Assembly (NCBI GenBank): GCA_021735045.1
Contig: JAIPHU010000013.1
Span: 2,109-34,108 of the forward strand
DNA length: 32,000 nucleotides
Direction of reading: 5' to 3'
Source of the DNA: Candidatus Omnitrophota bacterium
GTDB lineage: Bacteria; Omnitrophota; Gorgyraeia; Duberdicusellales; 4484-171
In this document: piece after piece, positions 2,058 through 25,715 of the stretch
Position numbering within the stretch: position 1 is the first letter of the stretch
How the letters are laid out: every line of letters starts with the position of its first letter
Translations under genes and position numbers: made by a program
Notes under the pieces: generated by a model
The model's input: only the letters and a program-made list of their open reading frames with translations
What the model was told of the DNA's origin: nothing
Databases searched by the model: none

Positions 2058-2633
2058 ATGAGTGAAACTCAGAAAAAAACTTTGGGCATGGCAATAGCTA
2101 GTTTAGTTTTTGGATGTTTGATTCTTATCCCTATTTTAAACATACCCTTTGCTATAACTGCTATTATCTTAGGAATTATTGCTTTAAATAAAATTTCTAG
2201 TAATAAAGATACTTTAAAAGGTAGAGGTTTAGCCATCTCTGGCATTGTTCTTGGTGGTGTAGGAATTGTTTTAATTCCCATAATTGCAATGCTTGCTGCA
2301 ATAGCTATACCAAATCTTTTAAGGACAAGGATGAATGCCGGTGAAGCCAACGCAAAAGCAACCCTACGAATACTTTCAACAGCTGCTGAAAGTTATGCTG
2401 CAGCCAACAATGGAGAATATCCTTTTTCTGCATACAGTTTAACCTCAGCAGAACCACCATACCTTAATGAAAATTATACATCCGGCACCCATCAAGGATA
2501 TAAGTTTAGTTGTGAATTTGACTCCAATAGTTATGAATGTGTAGCTATTCCTGAAAATTGTGGTACTACAGGAACTGAAATATATACTATAGAAAAAGGA
2601 GGAATACTTTCAGAAACTGATTGTGCAAATTAA
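2058..2633 (+). CDS. membrane protein: DUF4190-like double-TM anchor fused to a type IV pilin / pseudopilin-like domain
   Basis: AAGGAGG lies 6 nt upstream of the ATG. The N-terminus 'GMAIASLVFGCLILIP..AIILGIIALNKI..KGRGLAISGIVLGG' is DUF4190-like. It is followed by 'AMLAAIAIPNLLRTRMNAGEANAKATLRILSTAAESY', typical of the pilin alpha-1 helix. The C-terminal part has 4 Cys. Confidence 0.7.
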   Translation: MSETQKKTLGMAIASLVFGCLILIPILNIPFAITAIILGIIALNKISSNKDTLKGRGLAISGIVLGGVGIVLIPIIAMLAAIAIPNLLRTRMNAGEANAKATLRILSTAAESYAAANNGEYPFSAYSLTSAEPPYLNENYTSGTHQGYKFSCEFDSNSYECVAIPENCGTTGTEIYTIEKGGILSETDCAN

Positions 2634-2656
2634 TAAAAAAATTATAAATAAACCCA

Positions 2657-2821
2657 GATAACAACTCATTCGGGCGAACTGAACTAAGGGGACGTTTCCC
2701 TCGTTTACAACCCTTTACCGGCCAATGAATTATAAACTGGCATTTTACACTATTTGCGAAAAACACTGTTTTATAAGTTATTTATTTGCAGTGACTTATA
2801 ACAGAGGGAAACGCCCCCTCT
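2657..2821. repeat. intergenic element with related 5' box and its own 16-nt long-range inverted repeat
   Basis: ATAACAACTCA (2658-2668) is shared with copies A and B. AGGGGACGTTTCCCTC (2687-2702) versus GAGGGAAACGCCCCCT (2804-2819) is 15/16 complementary, with 101 nt between the arms. Confidence 0.5.
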
Positions 2822-2861
2822 TGATCGATTATAGATGCATAATGAATAAATTTAGATAAAA

Positions 2862-3299
2862 ATGAAAGTATTAATTAATCGAATAAATAAAGGTAAAGTA
2901 GAAGTAGCAAAAGAAGTTATTGCTTCGATCGATAAAGGTTTGGCCGTATTTGTGGGGATTGAAGCTGGTAATACCGAATCAAACCTTGTTACTGCTGCAA
3001 AAAAGATTGTAAATATAAGGATATTTGAAGATAAAACTGGTAAGATGTCTAGATCGGTTAAACAAGCAGGGCTCCCGGTGCTTTGTATCCCTAATTTTAC
3101 TCTTTGTGCTTCAACAGAAAAAGGAAGGCGGCCATCTTTTGAAAAAGCAATGAAACCAGAAAAAGCCAAAAAATTATTTGATAAATTCTTAAATTTACTT
3201 CATAATGAATTAGATAATATTCAGTCGGGAATATTTGGAGCCCATATGGATATAAAGTTAGAACTCGATGGCCCAGTAAACATTATATTAGAAATATAA
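2862..3299 (+). CDS. dtd: D-aminoacyl-tRNA deacylase
   Basis: Family-typical length of 145 aa. Motifs: 'MKVLINRI', 'GLAVFVGIE', 'NIRIFEDKTGKM', 'NFTLCASTEKGRRPSF', and C-terminal 'GIFGAHMDIKLELDGPVNIILE'. Confidence 0.9.
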   Translation: MKVLINRINKGKVEVAKEVIASIDKGLAVFVGIEAGNTESNLVTAAKKIVNIRIFEDKTGKMSRSVKQAGLPVLCIPNFTLCASTEKGRRPSFEKAMKPEKAKKLFDKFLNLLHNELDNIQSGIFGAHMDIKLELDGPVNIILEI

Positions 3300-7506: not shown

Positions 7507-8310
7507 ATGAAAAAAATAGGAATAGTCGGCTGTGGTACCATTGGAGAAGGTATCGCTTTATTTATTGATAAAAATTTATCTAAGCAAGCTACTATTACGG
7601 CTTTAGCCGACAAAAAGAAAATAGCAGCAACTACTCTTAATAAAAAATTAACAAAAAAAGCTAAAATTAAAACCATAGAAAACTTGGTTAAGGAAGTAGA
7701 TTTAGTAGTTGAAACCGCCTCACAAACTGCTGCTTATCAAACAATAAAACAAATTTTAATTTATAAAAAAGATATAATTATCTTAAGTGTAGGGGCTTTA
7801 ATAAAAGAACCAAAGATCTTAAAAGAAGTTCAAATAAAAAATATAAATATGTATATACCTTCAGGCGCAATTTCTGGGGTAGATGGCCTAGGCGCTCTGG
7901 CTAAAGGTAATATAAAAAAATTAACTATTACAACCTCAAAACCTCCAGCTGGATTAGCTGGCGCAAAATATCTAAAAAGCAAAAATATCGATATAAACAA
8001 ATTAAAAAAACCTACTACTATCTTTTCCGGAGGAGTTAAAGAAGCTATAAAATATTTTCCTAAAAATATCAATGTAGCTGCAACTTTACTTTTTGCTTCT
8101 AAGTTCAATAAAGTTAAGGTAGTAATTAGACTAAACCCTAAGATCAAAAGAAATATTCATAAAGTTGAAGCTGTAGCAGATGAAGCTAGGATAAAAACAG
8201 AAGTTGAAAATGTTTCTTCAAAAATAAACCCTAAAACAAGCGCATTGACAATTCTTTCAACCCAAACATTACTTGAGAAAATTTTTTCTTCCGTAAAAAT
8301 AGGAAGCTAA
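7507..8310 (+). CDS. nadX: L-aspartate dehydrogenase
   Basis: Rossmann motif 'IGIVGCGTIG', plus 'PSGAISGVDGL', 'FPKNINVAATL', 'NIHKVE', 'NPKTSALT'. Collinear with Thermotoga aspartate dehydrogenase from memory. Confidence 0.85.
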   Translation: MKKIGIVGCGTIGEGIALFIDKNLSKQATITALADKKKIAATTLNKKLTKKAKIKTIENLVKEVDLVVETASQTAAYQTIKQILIYKKDIIILSVGALIKEPKILKEVQIKNINMYIPSGAISGVDGLGALAKGNIKKLTITTSKPPAGLAGAKYLKSKNIDINKLKKPTTIFSGGVKEAIKYFPKNINVAATLLFASKFNKVKVVIRLNPKIKRNIHKVEAVADEARIKTEVENVSSKINPKTSALTILSTQTLLEKIFSSVKIGS

Positions 8311-14787: not shown

Positions 14788-15339
14788 ATGAAAATAAAAA
14801 AAATATTTATTATCTTTGTTTTATTTTCAACTTTTTTCCATATCTTATTTTTTTCTCAAATCAATCTTACGCTCCCAAACAAACAAAATCCATACATCAA
14901 TGCCTGGCCCAACCTTCTCAATAAAGAAGATTTGGTAGCAAAATCACAGATAGCTAAATTACCTAAAGAAGTAAATTTTTCGACCGCAAAAATAAGAAAA
15001 GCATACTTTTCAAAACCTTTACCTGAATCTAGCTATGAATATATTTTTAACCAAGATTTAAACAACTATTTAAAACCTAAAAATATACTCAAAAAATACA
15101 CAAAAAGCAACAACCACATCTTCTTTTTGTGGGAAAAAGAACCTCAACCGACTGCGAAAAAAAAATCGATATCTTATCGAGCTTTAGTTTCTCCTTATGG
15201 CAAGATTATATTACTTTATCCCAAAAAACTCGTTTTAGATTCTCATAAAAATATATCTAGTTATAACTATCTTAAAGAATCTGCTTATTTTTTAGAAAAA
15301 AAATTTTTCTGGACAAAATTTGACGTTTTAGTAAAATGA
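14788..15339 (+). CDS. N-terminally membrane-anchored hypothetical protein in the position of TonB/TolA
   Basis: Single N-terminal TM (IFIIFVLFSTFFHILFF) and a location directly after ExbD. No Pro-rich spacer, and I cannot confirm a TonB C-terminal fold by eye. Confidence 0.4.
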   Translation: MKIKKIFIIFVLFSTFFHILFFSQINLTLPNKQNPYINAWPNLLNKEDLVAKSQIAKLPKEVNFSTAKIRKAYFSKPLPESSYEYIFNQDLNNYLKPKNILKKYTKSNNHIFFLWEKEPQPTAKKKSISYRALVSPYGKIILLYPKKLVLDSHKNISSYNYLKESAYFLEKKFFWTKFDVLVK

Positions 15340-15560
15340 TAGATGTAGACCTTTCAGTAGTTATAGGATTTCTGCTTGATAGTTCAATATTGATTTGTTT
15401 TATTTTATATTGGCTAAATAACATCTGGTTTATCAAAAAAGAAAAAAATATAAACTTACAAAAGAAAAAATGTGAAATATGTGAAATTTTTTCTTTTGTA
15501 AATAGTCGAGATGGATATTGGAGATGTCCTAACTGTGAAAGTTTAAATAGAGGTGAGTAG
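15336..15560 (+). CDS. small membrane protein with C-terminal zinc ribbon
   Basis: ATGA start/stop overlap with the preceding gene. Has a TM segment 'VVIGFLLDSSILICFILYWL' and then 'CEIC..(14)..CPNC'. Confidence 0.55.
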   Translation: MIDVDLSVVIGFLLDSSILICFILYWLNNIWFIKKEKNINLQKKKCEICEIFSFVNSRDGYWRCPNCESLNRGE

Positions 15561-16257: not shown

Positions 16258-17001
16258 ATGAAAAGAGTACGATTTTATATAAAACCAGAGTTGATAAAGA
16301 AAAAAATTAAAATTGTTAATAACAATACACTACACAAAATCAAAAATGTCCTTCGTTTATCAAAAAATCAAAATATTTACATTTTTGACGGAAAGGGCAA
16401 GGAGTGGAAATATAAAGTTAAAGAAATTAAAAAAAATGAGATATCAATCAATGAAATAAAAAAAACTAAAGACAAAAAAGAAAAAAAACCGTTGTTAACA
16501 CTAGGATTTCCTTTAACTCAAGAAAAAAAAATAGACTTTATTTTACAAAAATCTACTGAATTAGGAGTTTCGGAATTTACTCCTTTTATTTCATCAAGAA
16601 GTAGGGGCGCCTCGCGAGCCGCCCCTACTGATTCAAAAATAAAACGTTGGCAAAAAATAATCATTGAGGCTTGCCGACAATCAGAACGATTATGGATTCC
16701 TAGGATAAACCAGCCGCTTGCACTTGACCAACTAATTAAAAAAAATGCTGATTTAAAGATAGTAGGGGCGCCTCGCGAGGCGCCCCTACACGAGCCACCC
16801 CTACCGTTATTGATCAATACCTATAAAACAAAAAATATTCTTTGTATTGTAGGACCAGAAGGCGGGTTTTGCGAAAAAGAGATTAATAATCTCAGACAAA
16901 ATAACTGCAAACCGATAAAATTGTCCCTAAATATATTAAGAACTGAAACTGCAGCAATATTTATATCCGGCCTGATTAGATACAAATATTTAATAAACTA
17001 A
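16258..17001 (+). CDS. rsmE: 16S rRNA (uracil1498-N3)-methyltransferase
   Basis: Motifs 'FILQKSTELGVSEFTP', 'RWQKIIIEACRQSER', 'IVGPEGGF', 'ILRTETAA', and a length of 247 aa. Carries two in-frame GC-rich palindromes (see repeats). Confidence 0.85.
   Translation: MKRVRFYIKPELIKKKIKIVNNNTLHKIKNVLRLSKNQNIYIFDGKGKEWKYKVKEIKKNEISINEIKKTKDKKEKKPLLTLGFPLTQEKKIDFILQKSTELGVSEFTPFISSRSRGASRAAPTDSKIKRWQKIIIEACRQSERLWIPRINQPLALDQLIKKNADLKIVGAPREAPLHEPPLPLLINTYKTKNILCIVGPEGGFCEKEINNLRQNNCKPIKLSLNILRTETAAIFISGLIRYKYLIN
16601..16628. repeat. 28-nt GC-rich palindrome, copy 1 (inside rsmE)
   Basis: GTAGGGGCGCCTCGCGAGCCGCCCCTAC, 27/28 self-complementary. Encodes ..RGASRAAPT.. in the rsmE frame. Confidence 0.9.
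16762..16804. repeat. 28-nt GC-rich palindrome, copy 2, plus partial duplicate of its right arm (inside rsmE)
   Basis: GTAGGGGCGCCTCGCGAGGCGCCCCTAC (16762-16789) is a perfect palindrome with 22/28 G+C. It is followed by CGAGCCACCCCTAC (16791-16804), 12/14 identical to the right arm. Confidence 0.9.
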
Positions 17002-22425: not shown

Positions 22426-23361
22426 ATGGATAAGATTGTTTATTTTGGAAGCTCTAATTTTTCGAAAAAAATATTACAAGCTCTTATAGAGGCTAAGATT
22501 AAACCTCTATTGGTTGTGACCAAGCCTGATGCCCCTAAGGGCAGGGGCCTGAAACTTTACCCAACTCAAGTAGCTAAAGTTTCAGAAGACAATCATATTG
22601 AAGTTACAAAGCCCAGTAATTTAAAAACTATTAAATTTTTAGATAAAATATCTAAGATTAACCCCAACTATTTAGTTGTCGCTGACTACGGAAAAATTAT
22701 TCCAAATTCACTACTGTCGATACCGAAAATTTTACCGCTGGGGGTTCACCCATCACTCTTGCCATTTTATAGAGGGCCTGCGCCAATCGAAAGAACTTTA
22801 ATTGATAACAGAAAAATAACCGGCGCCACAATTTTTAAACTAGATAAGGGTATTGATACCGGGCCTATAGTTTTACAGAAAAAGATAAAAATTGAATCAA
22901 ACGACACCTACTTTAGCCTTTCAAAAAAATTAGCAACTTTAGGCACAGAAGCTCTTATTGAAACTCTCTATCAACTAAAAGATAACCCGCCAAAATTAGA
23001 AAAACAAGATAGAAATAAAGCTACTTTTGCACCTAAACTATCTAAACAAGATGGAAAAATTAATTGGGAAAATAACGCTGAAAAAATAAAGAACTTAATT
23101 AGAGCAACCCTGAATTGGCCTACTGCCTATACTTACTACAGGAATAAAATATTAAAAATAACAGAAGCAGAAAGCCTAGAAGATAAAAACGAACAAAAAC
23201 CGTCAACAATTATAAAAATAGACAAATCTGGAATCTATGTAGCTACAAGTTTTGGCATATTGAAAATAAAAAAAGTGAAACCTGAAGGAAAAAAAGAAAT
23301 GCCGGCATGGTCTTTTGTTTGCGGCCACAAAATTCAAGAAGGAGACCGTTTTAAATTATGA
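22426..23361 (+). CDS. fmt: methionyl-tRNA formyltransferase
   Basis: Motifs 'IVYFGSSNFS', 'VVTKPDAPKGRG', 'GVHPSLLPFYRGPAPI', and a C-terminal beta-barrel domain. Confidence 0.9.
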   Translation: MDKIVYFGSSNFSKKILQALIEAKIKPLLVVTKPDAPKGRGLKLYPTQVAKVSEDNHIEVTKPSNLKTIKFLDKISKINPNYLVVADYGKIIPNSLLSIPKILPLGVHPSLLPFYRGPAPIERTLIDNRKITGATIFKLDKGIDTGPIVLQKKIKIESNDTYFSLSKKLATLGTEALIETLYQLKDNPPKLEKQDRNKATFAPKLSKQDGKINWENNAEKIKNLIRATLNWPTAYTYYRNKILKITEAESLEDKNEQKPSTIIKIDKSGIYVATSFGILKIKKVKPEGKKEMPAWSFVCGHKIQEGDRFKL

Positions 23362-23637: not shown

Positions 23638-25632
23638 ATGGCAACAAATAAAATTAAATCACAAATTAGAGGTCTTCGTGAAAAAATCAGAGAAGCCGAT
23701 TATCATTATTACGTACAAAATGACCCTCAGATATCTGATAAAGAATATGATGACCTGCTAAAAAATTTAAAATCTCTAGAAAAAAAACACCCTCAACTAA
23801 TAACTCCTGATTCTCCCACTCAAAGAGTAAGTGGCGGGCTTCTAGAAGAATTCCCTGCAGTAAAACATAAAACAAAAATGCTTTCTTTAGATAATACCTA
23901 TTCAATTGAGGAACTGAAAGAATGGGAAAAAAAGATGAAAAGGATTTTAAAAAAAGATATAACCTTTAGCTACATCTGCGAGTTAAAAATTGATGGGATT
24001 AGTTGTTCACTTAACTACCAAAACGGCCGCTTAGCTAGGGGGTTAACTCGAGGCGATGGCCAAAAAGGCGAGGACATAACTCCCAATATAAAAACTATCC
24101 CTTCAGTTCCTTTAAAATTGCGCAAAAATCATCCTAAAAACTTAGAAGTTAGAGGTGAAGTCTATATTAGCAAAAAAGATTTTGAAAAATTAAACCAACA
24201 GCGTCTAGAAAAAAGTAAAAATCCTTTTGCTAACCCCAGAAATGCTGCCGGCGGTTCACTAAAACTTCTTAACCCGAGCCTAGTTGCTAAACGAAATCTA
24301 AAATGTTTTATTCATTCTTTTGGCTGGATAGAAGGTTATAAATTTAATTCACAACAAGAATTCTTTAAAAAAATAACCAAGTGGGGCCTAAGAACCCAAA
24401 AAGAAAATAAACTTTGCAAAAACCTAGAACAAGTTATCAACTACTGCAGAACTTTCCAGCAAAAACGGGATAGCCTCAACTATGAAGCAGACGGAGTAGT
24501 AGTCAAGGTTAATGATCTAGATTTACAAAAAAAATTAGGTTCTACTCAAAAATCACCACGCTGGGCAGTAGCTTATAAGTTTCCCGCAATAAGAAAAACT
24601 ACTAAAATAAAAAAAGTAGAGTTCGGAGTAGGCCGCACCGGAATTATTACCCCGGTTGCAATTCTACAACCCGTCCGTTGCGGAGGTGCAACTATAAAAC
24701 GAACAACCCTGCATAATTTTGATGAAGTTAAACGGCTTGGTGTAAAAATTGAAGATACAGTTTTAATTGAAAGAGCCGGTGATGTTATACCTAAAATCAT
24801 TAAAGTTATCAACTCAAAGCGTAATGGCAAAGAAAAACCAATAACTGAGCCAAAAAAATGTCCAGTTTGTGATGGAGCAGTGGAAAAAGAAGAAGTCTAT
24901 CTCTTTTGCCTTAATCCAAACTGTCCCAGCAAGCTTAAACGCTCTTTAGTTCATTTTGCCAGCCGCGGGGCAATGGATATAGAAGGAATGGGAGAAAGCC
25001 TAATTGAAGAACTGGTTAATAGAGGGCTTATTCATAATATTTCAGATATATACAAACTAACTAAAAAAGACTTACTAACTTTACCGTTATTTAAAGAGAA
25101 AAAAGCAAACAATATAATAAAATCAATTTCAAAAAGTAAAAATCAATCTTTAAGCAATCTTTTGTTTGGCTTAGGCATTCCTCATGTTGGAAAAAAAGCT
25201 GCTAATACTTTAACTGACCATTTCAAATCCCTTGATAAAATTATTCACTTAAAAGAAAAAGATTTAGAAAAAATAGATGAAATTGGGCCAGTTATGGCTA
25301 AATCAATTGTAAAGTTCTTTGCACAAAAATCTGTTAATAAAACATTAAAAGAATTTAAAAGATTAGGGCTATCACCAAAAAAAGAAGAGGGTAAAAAATC
25401 TGATCGGCTAAACAAAAAAACTTTCGTTTTTACCGGCCAACTTAACAACTTCAGCCGTAATCAAGCCCAAAAGAAGGTGGAGGAGTTAGGAGGGAGATGG
25501 TCATCATCGATAAGCAGCAAAACCGACTTTCTAGTCGCTGGCAAAGACCCTGGTTCTAAATATAGCCAGGCAAAAGAAAAAAAGGTAAAAATTCTTTCAG
25601 AAGATAATTTTCTGAAATTGGTTGGCATTTAA
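23638..25632 (+). CDS. ligA: NAD-dependent DNA ligase
   Basis: Adenylation site 'CELKIDG', plus 'GEVY', the OB-fold, a 4-Cys zinc finger (CPVC..C..PNC), HhH repeats, and a C-terminal BRCT domain ('FVFTGQL..'). Confidence 0.97.
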   Translation: MATNKIKSQIRGLREKIREADYHYYVQNDPQISDKEYDDLLKNLKSLEKKHPQLITPDSPTQRVSGGLLEEFPAVKHKTKMLSLDNTYSIEELKEWEKKMKRILKKDITFSYICELKIDGISCSLNYQNGRLARGLTRGDGQKGEDITPNIKTIPSVPLKLRKNHPKNLEVRGEVYISKKDFEKLNQQRLEKSKNPFANPRNAAGGSLKLLNPSLVAKRNLKCFIHSFGWIEGYKFNSQQEFFKKITKWGLRTQKENKLCKNLEQVINYCRTFQQKRDSLNYEADGVVVKVNDLDLQKKLGSTQKSPRWAVAYKFPAIRKTTKIKKVEFGVGRTGIITPVAILQPVRCGGATIKRTTLHNFDEVKRLGVKIEDTVLIERAGDVIPKIIKVINSKRNGKEKPITEPKKCPVCDGAVEKEEVYLFCLNPNCPSKLKRSLVHFASRGAMDIEGMGESLIEELVNRGLIHNISDIYKLTKKDLLTLPLFKEKKANNIIKSISKSKNQSLSNLLFGLGIPHVGKKAANTLTDHFKSLDKIIHLKEKDLEKIDEIGPVMAKSIVKFFAQKSVNKTLKEFKRLGLSPKKEEGKKSDRLNKKTFVFTGQLNNFSRNQAQKKVEELGGRWSSSISSKTDFLVAGKDPGSKYSQAKEKKVKILSEDNFLKLVGI

Positions 25633-25633
25633 T

Positions 25634-25678
25634 GTAGGGGCACATTGCAATGTGCCCCTACATGCAATGTGATGTGCC
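25634..25678. repeat. 28-nt palindrome, copy 3, plus partial right-arm duplicate; possible ligA transcript-end hairpin
   Basis: GTAGGGGCACATTGCAATGTGCCCCTAC (25634-25661) is a perfect palindrome starting 2 nt after the ligA stop. TGCAATGTG (25646-25654) is repeated at 25663-25671, and ATGTGCC (25650-25656) at 25672-25678. Confidence 0.9.
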
Positions 25679-25715
25679 TCTTGATTTTTTAACAATATCA
25701 TCTATAATAATTGAA

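Follow-up and report, generated by a model that had tools for sequence, protein, structure and literature searches.

GTAG-tagged REP-type palindromes within rsmE and behind ligA of an Omnitrophota bacterium: probable copies of a RAYT-associated repeat family

Repetitive extragenic palindromic (REP) sequences with a GTAG or a CGTC tag constitute superfamilies known from more than 80 species, and 'REPtrons' with REP-associated tyrosine transposases (RAYTs) have been described (Di Nocera, De Gregorio & Rocco 2013, PMC3733652). According to the same authors, some REPs fall entirely within a gene, at times two in a single gene, and many such REPs lie in genes for repair and RNA-modification enzymes; one example is a CGTC-1 REP dimer at residues 191-220 of the 276-residue RsmE of E. 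litoralis (Erythrobacter) (PMC3733652, Additional file 3). Here, we have analyzed a 32,000-nt stretch of DNA from a metagenome-assembled genome (MAG) of Candidatus Omnitrophota (GCA_021735045.1, contig JAIPHU010000013.1; the whole stretch is called the window below). Its rsmE gene, encoding the 16S rRNA U1498 N3-methyltransferase, harbors two GC-rich 28-nt palindromes in-frame (site 1 and site 2), and a third copy is located behind ligA, the gene for NAD-dependent DNA ligase (Table 1). All three belong to one repeat family. They are probably copies of a GTAG-tagged REP-type hairpin of the RAYT-associated class, which landed in loops of RsmE and in the intergenic slot behind ligA and were then inherited vertically. 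Since GTAG- as well as CGTC-type REPs within genes are on record, including the one in E. litoralis RsmE, in-frame REPs in rsmE are an already published kind of event; the E. litoralis dimer lies in roughly the same region as site 2.

Table 1. Positions of the elements, their host genes and adjoining features in the window.
Feature	Position	Strand	Sequence or remark
rsmE	16258..17001	+	247 aa; open reading frame (ORF) open throughout; hosts two elements
Site-1 element, 28-nt palindrome	16601..16628	.	GTAGGGGCGCCTCGCGAGCCGCCCCTAC; 27/28 self-complementary
Site-2 element, perfect 28-nt palindrome	16762..16789	.	GTAGGGGCGCCTCGCGAGGCGCCCCTAC; 22/28 G+C
Extra partial right arm, GGCTCG/CGAGCC variant	16790..16804	+	A + CGAGCCACCCCTAC; read H-E-P-P-L-P
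Antisense ORF, 99 aa	16518..16817	-	By-product of palindromy
ligA	23638..25632	+	ORF; Pfam families of syntenic genes
Third family member	25634..25661	.	GTAGGGGCACATTGCAATGTGCCCCTAC, core ACATTGCAATGT; one base past the ligA stop codon
Degenerate partial arm	25662..25680	+	ATGCAATGTGATGTGCCTC; in the window, not in L001
Promoter-like TTGATT-N16-TATAAT	25681..25708	+	10/12 matches; for the downstream SPOR-domain gene

The family shares several traits with the published GTAG REPs (Nunvar 2010, PMC2817692; PMC3733652). Both are short GC-rich palindromes of 20-40 bp with a terminal GTAG, both form subfamilies that differ by complementary stem changes, and copies of both flank Y1/HUH RAYT genes and occur in-frame in genes, sometimes twice. 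The published copies lie mostly at gene 3' ends and as a minority within genes; of the three copies in the window, one is at a gene 3' end and two are intragenic. In contrast to the published repeats, the stem of the present element measures 12-14 bp and is almost loop-free, identical 28-mers occur across phyla, the intragenic fraction in AT-rich genomes is high, and a copy is found within the RAYT coding sequence.

The RsmE protein of the window matched Pfam family PF04452 (E 2.9e-45), PF20260 (PUA domain) and RsmE homologs in the PDB with E-values as low as 5e-26; it is 100% identical to an NCBI protein named RsmE from a Candidatus Omnitrophica MAG, and the motifs of the enzyme are intact beside both elements. 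Site 1 contains a lone C.C mismatch at positions 10/19 and extends to a palindrome of 30 nt when the flanking A/T is counted; it encodes the peptide S-R-G-A-S-R-A-A-P-T (aa 115-124). Site 2 encodes V-G-A-P-R-E-A-P-L (aa 169-177). The arm that follows it (positions 16791-16804, CGAGCCACCCCTAC) matches the right arm of site 1 at 13/14 and that of site 2 at 12/14 positions; partial-arm duplications of this kind were also observed beside the ligA copy and in many RAYT loops. A search for GTAGGGGC-N12-GCCCCTAC with ≤3 mismatches returned 3 matches in the window as compared to 0.00 expected from 100 shuffles. The GC content of the window is 27-40% per kb, and the source MAG is AT-rich with 32% GC.

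The tetranucleotide GTAG forms the 5' end of both strands and is base-paired with CTAC, hence it lies inside the palindrome. As read from the sequence, it gives a TAG stop in just one of three frames per strand; the two frames without stops coincide for both strands of the palindrome, hence the antisense ORF. As RNA, intact copies are predicted to fold with -20 to -27 kcal/mol (z -3.9 to -6.1), the values being -20.2 kcal/mol (z -3.9) for site 1, -26.2 kcal/mol (z -4.7) for site 2 and -27 kcal/mol for the ligA copy. A sequence-only reading of this locus had reported the coordinates and sequences of both rsmE palindromes, the 12/14 right-arm copy, the open RsmE frame with intact motifs and the antisense ORF as a by-product of the palindrome. 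All of these were correct, the right-arm copy being closer still to site 1; that reading noted two copies in the window and missed the third.

We compared the window with seven further distinct syntenic Omnitrophota loci, namely L001 and L003-L008; L002 is a second copy of the L001 region. Site 2 including the extra arm is identical in the window, L001 and L003, whose RsmE proteins are 73-75% identical; the extra arm of L003 is identical to the site-1 right arm (14/14). Since site 2 is found only in these three, whereas L004-L008 carry at this position an unrelated AT-rich segment which is 18 nt (6 aa) shorter and reads V-G/A-L-P-x-K-N-x, it is a lineage-specific gain that both replaced and added sequence. 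Versions of site 1 are present in the window and, with variant or compensated stems, in L001, L003, L004 and L005. AT-shifted remnants of similar length occupy the position in L006-L008, and in more distant orthologs the site-1 loop is shorter by 3-5 residues. To judge from this distribution, site 1 is older than site 2 and has decayed in some lineages. The decayed site 1 of L008 folds no better than shuffled sequences (z -0.07); copies in L005 and L007 have lost GTAG or TAC and retained the inner stem.

Aligned with P. aeruginosa RsmE, site 1 is gap-free and site 2 shows a net gain of 6 aa. An AlphaFold (AF2) model of the protein was obtained with a mean predicted local distance difference test score (pLDDT) of 86.4 and a predicted template modelling score (pTM) of 0.85. 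In this confident model both sites lie in loops: site 1 is placed between the strand 106-111 and the helix 125-142, and site 2 in a long low-confidence coil (pLDDT ~52) between the strands 166-170 and 193-198. The ortholog comparison and the predicted loop location thus bear out the proposal of the sequence-only reading that a hairpin repeat had colonised, and partly replaced, loop regions of rsmE, and its caveat that residues may have been replaced fits the lengths given above. That reading had named observations that would speak against it, among them the same segments in orthologs of relatives and a lack of further copies; relatives without the segments were found, and very many copies occur in other contexts and genomes.

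In the window, the site-1 left arm (16601-16614, GTAGGGGCGCCTCG) is the same as the left arm of site 2 (16762-16775) and differs from the site-1 left arms of L001, L003, L004 and L005. The C.C mismatch of site 1 could therefore stem from partial conversion by site 2, which lies 161 nt off.

The family as a whole is defined by GTAGGGGC-N12-GCCCCTAC, that is, by fixed outer arms and a 12-nt core which is variable but self-complementary. This generic motif was found in viral contigs at no fewer than 120 loci with at least 146 copies; among the 146 listed copies, the inner 12 nt were fully palindromic in 79 and had 5 of 6 pairs in 33 more. The pattern of the rsmE subfamily gave at least 120 matches in species-representative genomes of Chloroflexota, Acidobacteriota, 'Deltaproteobacteria', Fibrobacteria and one genome of the candidate phyla radiation (CPR), with many copies and many contigs per MAG in the listed genomes; in other MAGs, 6-19 copies were counted per 40-113 kb sampled. 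For the ligA-type pattern, the complete set in metagenome contigs comprises 92 loci with a GC content of 34-60%. Subfamilies correspond to discrete recurrent cores that differ by complementary stem changes. The core GGCTCGCGAGCC prevailed in each of the REP-rich genomes sampled. It corresponds to site 1 in its perfect form, which L005 has, and likewise to the perfect version of the extra arm of site 2, found in L003.

In MAGs of Acidobacteriota, of Chloroflexota and of 'Deltaproteobacteria' (L129-L248), one and the same 28-mer, GTAGGGGCGGCTCGCGAGCCGCCCCTAC, prevailed over other variants. REP families are usually lineage-specific. Identity of 28-mers across phyla could result either from horizontal spread of REP plus RAYT or from strong constraint imposed by the RAYT. 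A literature search for the string GTAGGGGC returned just unrelated primer or sequence matches, and the string is absent from the supplementary files of PMC3733652, Figure 1 of that paper being outside the comparison.

The position of copies relative to genes was determined for sources with <45% GC, where ORF calls are reliable, considering ORFs of ≥100 aa. Among 69 copies, 39 were located inside ORFs (including 9 in rsmE orthologs and ~12 in RAYT genes), 12 at the 3' and 8 at the 5' ends of genes, and 10 were intergenic. After removal of the copies in rsmE orthologs and within RAYT genes, 17-18 of ~45 (about 40%) were in-frame in ordinary genes; intergenic space was still enriched relative to its genome share. 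Given this proportion of in-frame copies in AT-rich loci, the general statement made earlier that REPs are normally extragenic holds only loosely for the present family. Two copies each were found in the genes for FeoB and a SpoIID-like protein; other host genes encode ATP synthase subunit a, MTHFR, YfiH, a DNA methylase, a Ser/Thr kinase and secreted proteins. Just two reading frames are used by in-gene copies, giving VGAxxxxPL or RGxxxxAPT, because GTAG produces a TAG stop in the third. Such elements yield spurious antisense ORFs and odd Gly/Ala/Pro/Arg-rich peptides of these two types which pollute protein databases.

Two family members per gene, or one each in adjacent genes, were also observed in AT-rich metagenome sequences (L261:1412-2581; L285:1214-3043; L266:16-1838), and paired copies can differ in their core, e.g. 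ACCACATGTGGT and ACATTGCAATGT in L285; two copies per gene, as in rsmE, are a recurring pattern. Elements occur in coding sequence on contigs classed as viral, too: L037:4660-5409 and L049:172-921 contain a 250-aa ORF with two in-frame members (…GEKFFAPTKP… and …VGANNYSPLH…).

At the ligA slot, the flank-to-flank gap is 47 nt in the window as compared to 28 nt in L001. The promoter-like sequence downstream is kept in all syntenic loci and equals the 3' boundary of the insertion slot. Orthologs of the ligA copy are present in L001, in L006 with a compensated core, and in L007, where the terminal TAC is missing; the exact 28-mer of the window was found 63 times in the metagenome contigs of the 92-locus set. 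In L003-L005, the slot between ligA and the SPOR-domain gene is filled by unrelated inserts of ~190 nt (L004:10278-10418; L005:12267-12406; L003:10680-10870). The insert of L004 and L005 has ends resembling terminal inverted repeats (AAATACGAAATACGAA ... TTCGTATTTCGAATTT), which are 88-94% complementary and ~95 nt apart; these ends suggest that it may be a miniature inverted-repeat transposable element. The slot looks like an insertion hot spot.

The family is linked to RAYT genes. In L181, a MAG of Anaerolineaceae, a Y1/HUH transposase gene (2470-3180) has 28-mers at both ends and one more in-frame inside; the protein matched PF01797 with 27 bits (cutoff 23) and the NCBIfam model REP_Tyr_transpos with E 1.5e-15. 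Furthermore, a RAYT homolog was detected in 28 of the 92 metagenome loci, which had been picked solely by the ligA-type 28-mer. The 28-mer lies within the RAYT coding sequence in 24 of the 92 loci, always right after the HUH motif, and within 150 nt of the gene in 4 more. The linked proteins contain the motifs PNHxH and (R/N)YYEH. NF047646 was the best family match, and the sole one for three of four proteins (E 1e-14 to 1e-20); the curated RAYT model matched in two stretches which are split exactly at the element-encoded loop.

At least ~8,000 homologs were obtained in a protein database search with one RAYT; their source records call them 'REP element-mobilizing transposase RayT' or 'REP-associated tyrosine transposase'. 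Among the 120 best of these, the loop behind the HUH motif is in essentially every case an element-derived peptide, VGAHCNVPL-like in one frame and GRGTMHRAPT- or CRGTLQRAPT-like in the other; some copies are degenerate or duplicated. Among these 120 no Omnitrophica name was present, and no RAYT without the element-derived loop was found for comparison. RAYTs with an internal copy include those of L254, L278, L286, L310, L313, L320, L322, L336 and L341:10001-10537; in L341 (33.8% GC), an AT-rich RAYT gene holds a perfect GC-rich copy. P0135, located on a 183.7-kb contig, was considered in the search for an Omnitrophota RAYT and ruled out, as it comes from a different organism of the same sample as L006.

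These observations can be combined in the following model. Each strand of the element reads as 5'-GTAG followed by a hairpin. The TnpA enzymes of IS200/IS605 (Y1 HUH) act on single-stranded hairpins with an adjacent conserved tetranucleotide, and the RAYTs described here share with them the Y1/HUH enzyme family and the match to PF01797; a difference is that no transposase lies between two ends of the 28-mer. By analogy to known HUH/Y1 enzymes, the element may be mobilised as single-stranded hairpin DNA by a RAYT. An ancestor of this Omnitrophota lineage would have acquired copies in two variable loops on the RsmE surface and in the slot between ligA and the SPOR-domain gene, with partial replacement of the local sequence. 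A peptide of ~10 residues rich in Gly/Ala/Pro/Arg (15 residues at site 2 if the extra arm is counted) would be tolerated by the loops, and the encoded peptides are presumably near-neutral for RsmE. Survival of the copies would be due to this tolerance of the loops and to GTAG...CTAC being free of stops in the two frames which alone are possible within a gene; vertical inheritance would have followed.

With respect to the manner of insertion, a simple rule by which 24 nt are inserted 3' of a pre-existing GTAG, always adding 8 codons, was considered. For such a rule speak the GTAG which L004 and L006 have at their empty site 2 and a site-1 loop that is 8 aa longer in L007/P0009 than in P0011; it was not supported, as the empty site of L326 lacks GTAG. 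The net change in length relative to solved homologs varied, with +4 for MTHFR, +6 to +8 for YfiH, 0 for RsmE site 1 and +6 for RsmE site 2; the FeoB structures do not cover the element sites. Homologous intergenic sites of related metagenome contigs (L253:1850, L325:4883, L326; L290:307, L307:2475, L337:4199) differ at the element junctions, and at the 3' junction of filled sites the 4 nt GTAC are present in L290 and missing in L307 and L337.

Several results weigh against the assignment of the window copies to a RAYT-mobilised GTAG-REP family. The GTAG tag of published REPs is unpaired and stands at one end, whereas here it is paired and stands at both. A tblastn search with three RAYTs detected no homolog, either in the window or among L001-L008, the eight syntenic loci of Omnitrophota; the rest of the source genome was outside this search, and the copies of the source lineage may therefore be relics without an active mobiliser. 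No Omnitrophota genome was among the first 120 matches in species-representative genomes, and the site-2 core GCCTCGCGAGGC was not seen outside the source lineage. Copies are locally sparse: the 32 kb contain three, and a single gene accounts for two of these. The scores of the RAYTs with NF047646 (54-72 bits) stay below the equivalog cutoff of 80 bits. In the sole pair of filled and empty sites (L253/L325 vs L326), the 28-mer plus one base replaces an unrelated 14 nt, which fits no simple cut-and-paste. Finally, the synonymous conservation of the elements described below is in excess of what is expected for a purely neutral passenger.

In the elements of rsmE, nucleotide conservation exceeds protein constraint. 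Comparison of the window with L001 revealed that 72/75 element bases are identical, as are 498/660 (75%) in the rest of the gene; among codons for identical residues, 22/24 are identical in the elements vs 99/154 in the rest (Fisher p 0.004). For L003, the respective values are 72/75 and 487/660 for bases and 22/24 and 88/149 for codons (Fisher p 0.001). Stem changes tend to be compensated, both at site 1 (GGTTCG.CGAACC in L004 vs GGCTCG.CGAGCC in L005) and in the ligA copy (ACAGC..GCTGT in L006 vs ACATT..AATGT in the window). Conservation of synonymous positions despite AT mutation pressure, compensated changes at both places and the high stability of the RNA hairpins would be accounted for if the hairpins were functional for the host as RNA or DNA structures in rsmE and after ligA, with the stem under purifying selection and the mobile origin secondary. 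They might then act as an mRNA stabiliser or processing site, a translational pause between structural elements, a terminator or attenuator, or a protein-binding site, and Di Nocera et al. indeed argue that many REPs act as RNA elements (PMC3733652). In L001, L006 and L007, the stem of the ligA copy adjoins a T-rich run, TTGATTTTTT, and hence is terminator-like.

We nevertheless regard a host function of this kind as rather unlikely. Dozens of unrelated genes and intergenic positions in many phyla contain these very 28-mers, so that nothing about them is peculiar to rsmE. Most relatives lack site 2, and in L006-L008 site 1 is decayed; in neither case does the gene show signs of harm. In the window, 19 nt of degenerate arm are inserted between the ligA copy and the T-run, and a scan for intrinsic terminators, carried out on the window only, gave no call. 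The 'compensated' variants (GGTTCGCGAACC and similar) are recurrent variants of the family elsewhere and are therefore explained by replacement or by conversion from another copy no less well than by selection in situ. Three processes may keep up perfect stems in a genome with 32% GC, namely selection acting on the hairpin, conversion by other copies, or templated repair within the hairpin.

Selection might instead act on the Gly/Ala/Pro/Arg-rich peptides, e.g. as basic loops aiding rRNA contact, the DNA palindromy being incidental. Arg residues are indeed added to an RNA-binding enzyme, and the three or five closest orthologs share identical peptides. However, the same DNA is read in two frames in unrelated proteins and also lies between genes, conservation reaches synonymous positions, most orthologs lack the peptides, and site 2 is predicted to lie in a low-confidence, apparently disordered loop; selection for the peptides is thus very improbable. 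An assembly artefact is unlikely because the same elements are present at the same sites in the independent assemblies GCA_021735295.1, GCA_021735115.1, GCA_046484225.1 and GCA_021735345.1 and in a contig of the Joint Genome Institute (JGI). Although the source is a MAG, assembly or binning errors, or local chance or convergence without a repeat family, can hardly be entertained, given at least five independent assemblies from different projects, a chance expectation of 0.00 and identical 28-mers in hundreds of other loci.

Apart from the origin of the window copies, the RAYT genes themselves raise a further point. It is conceivable, and we propose it only tentatively, that the 28-mer family and its RAYT clade represent a REP system of a distinct kind, the RAYT gene having a copy of its own repeat residing within it. 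No report of a REP inside a RAYT coding sequence was found in the literature searched, where the analyses treat the extragenic flanks. If the proposal is true, the embedded copy could provide a master or a template, or could be a site of regulation in cis; it would explain the persistence of identical 28-mers across phyla and the perfect GC-rich stems within genes, as in rsmE, at 32% GC. The double GTAG/CTAC design, stop-free in both usable frames on both strands, would be unusually suited to coding sequence. With regard to the copying of REPs and the persistence of RAYTs as 'domesticated' single-copy genes, a RAYT clade with its own substrate in-frame would offer a concrete handle for biochemistry and for tracing the co-evolution of REP and RAYT.

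Other systems of short palindromes are less similar. The main family of Rickettsia palindromic elements (RPE), RPE-1, measures ~100-150 bp and is confined to Rickettsia. As described in PMC3733652, RPE share with the present element the in-frame location of palindromic repeats in functional genes and the extra surface peptides; the short intragenic RPE-4 and RPE-6 of R. conorii are assigned there to the CGTC superfamily, without a linked transposase in that account. The descriptions set the present element apart by its 28 nt, GTAG type, RAYT link and cross-phylum occurrence. RPE had been named for comparison before; the closest known class is rather the GTAG-tagged RAYT-associated REPs, of which in-frame copies have been published. 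REP doublets forming hairpins (REPINs) are likewise replicated by single-copy, vertically inherited RAYTs and persist for long in a lineage (Bertels & Rainey 2011, PMC3116915; PMC5581495). A REPIN is an extragenic doublet of two inverted REPs plus spacer, whereas here one self-complementary 28-mer makes up the unit. None of the window copies represents a REPIN, as each stands singly and the two in rsmE are 161 nt apart and of different age; close pairs of 28-mers (48-76 nt apart) were found in few loci, all of them GC-rich. A CRISPR-like array was ruled out, too, as copies are single or paired and never at regular spacing.

The rsmE elements extend intragenic REPs to Omnitrophota and to an AT-rich genome, where they stand out sharply. 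Possibly new are the double-tagged perfect palindrome, the identical 28-mers across phyla, the nucleotide conservation in excess of protein constraint with compensated stems, and the copy in the post-HUH loop of apparently all RAYTs sampled from this clade.

Further sequences of the window were noted. Half-site matches at 7789 and 21703 are isolated 8-mers and not elements. Positions 22529-22550 (GCCCCTAAGGGCAGGGGC) within the fmt gene (22426..23361) resemble a half-site and were not taken as a family member; presumably, they represent an ordinary coding motif of Fmt, D-A-P-K-G-R-G. An AT-rich palindrome at 15456-15501 consists of two 23-nt arms (TTACAAAAGAAAAAATGTGAAAT / ATGTGAAATTTTTTCTTTTGTAA) which are 87% complementary and have no spacer; it lies within a small ORF (15336..15560) upstream of a DUF2582 gene and is unrelated to the GC-rich family.

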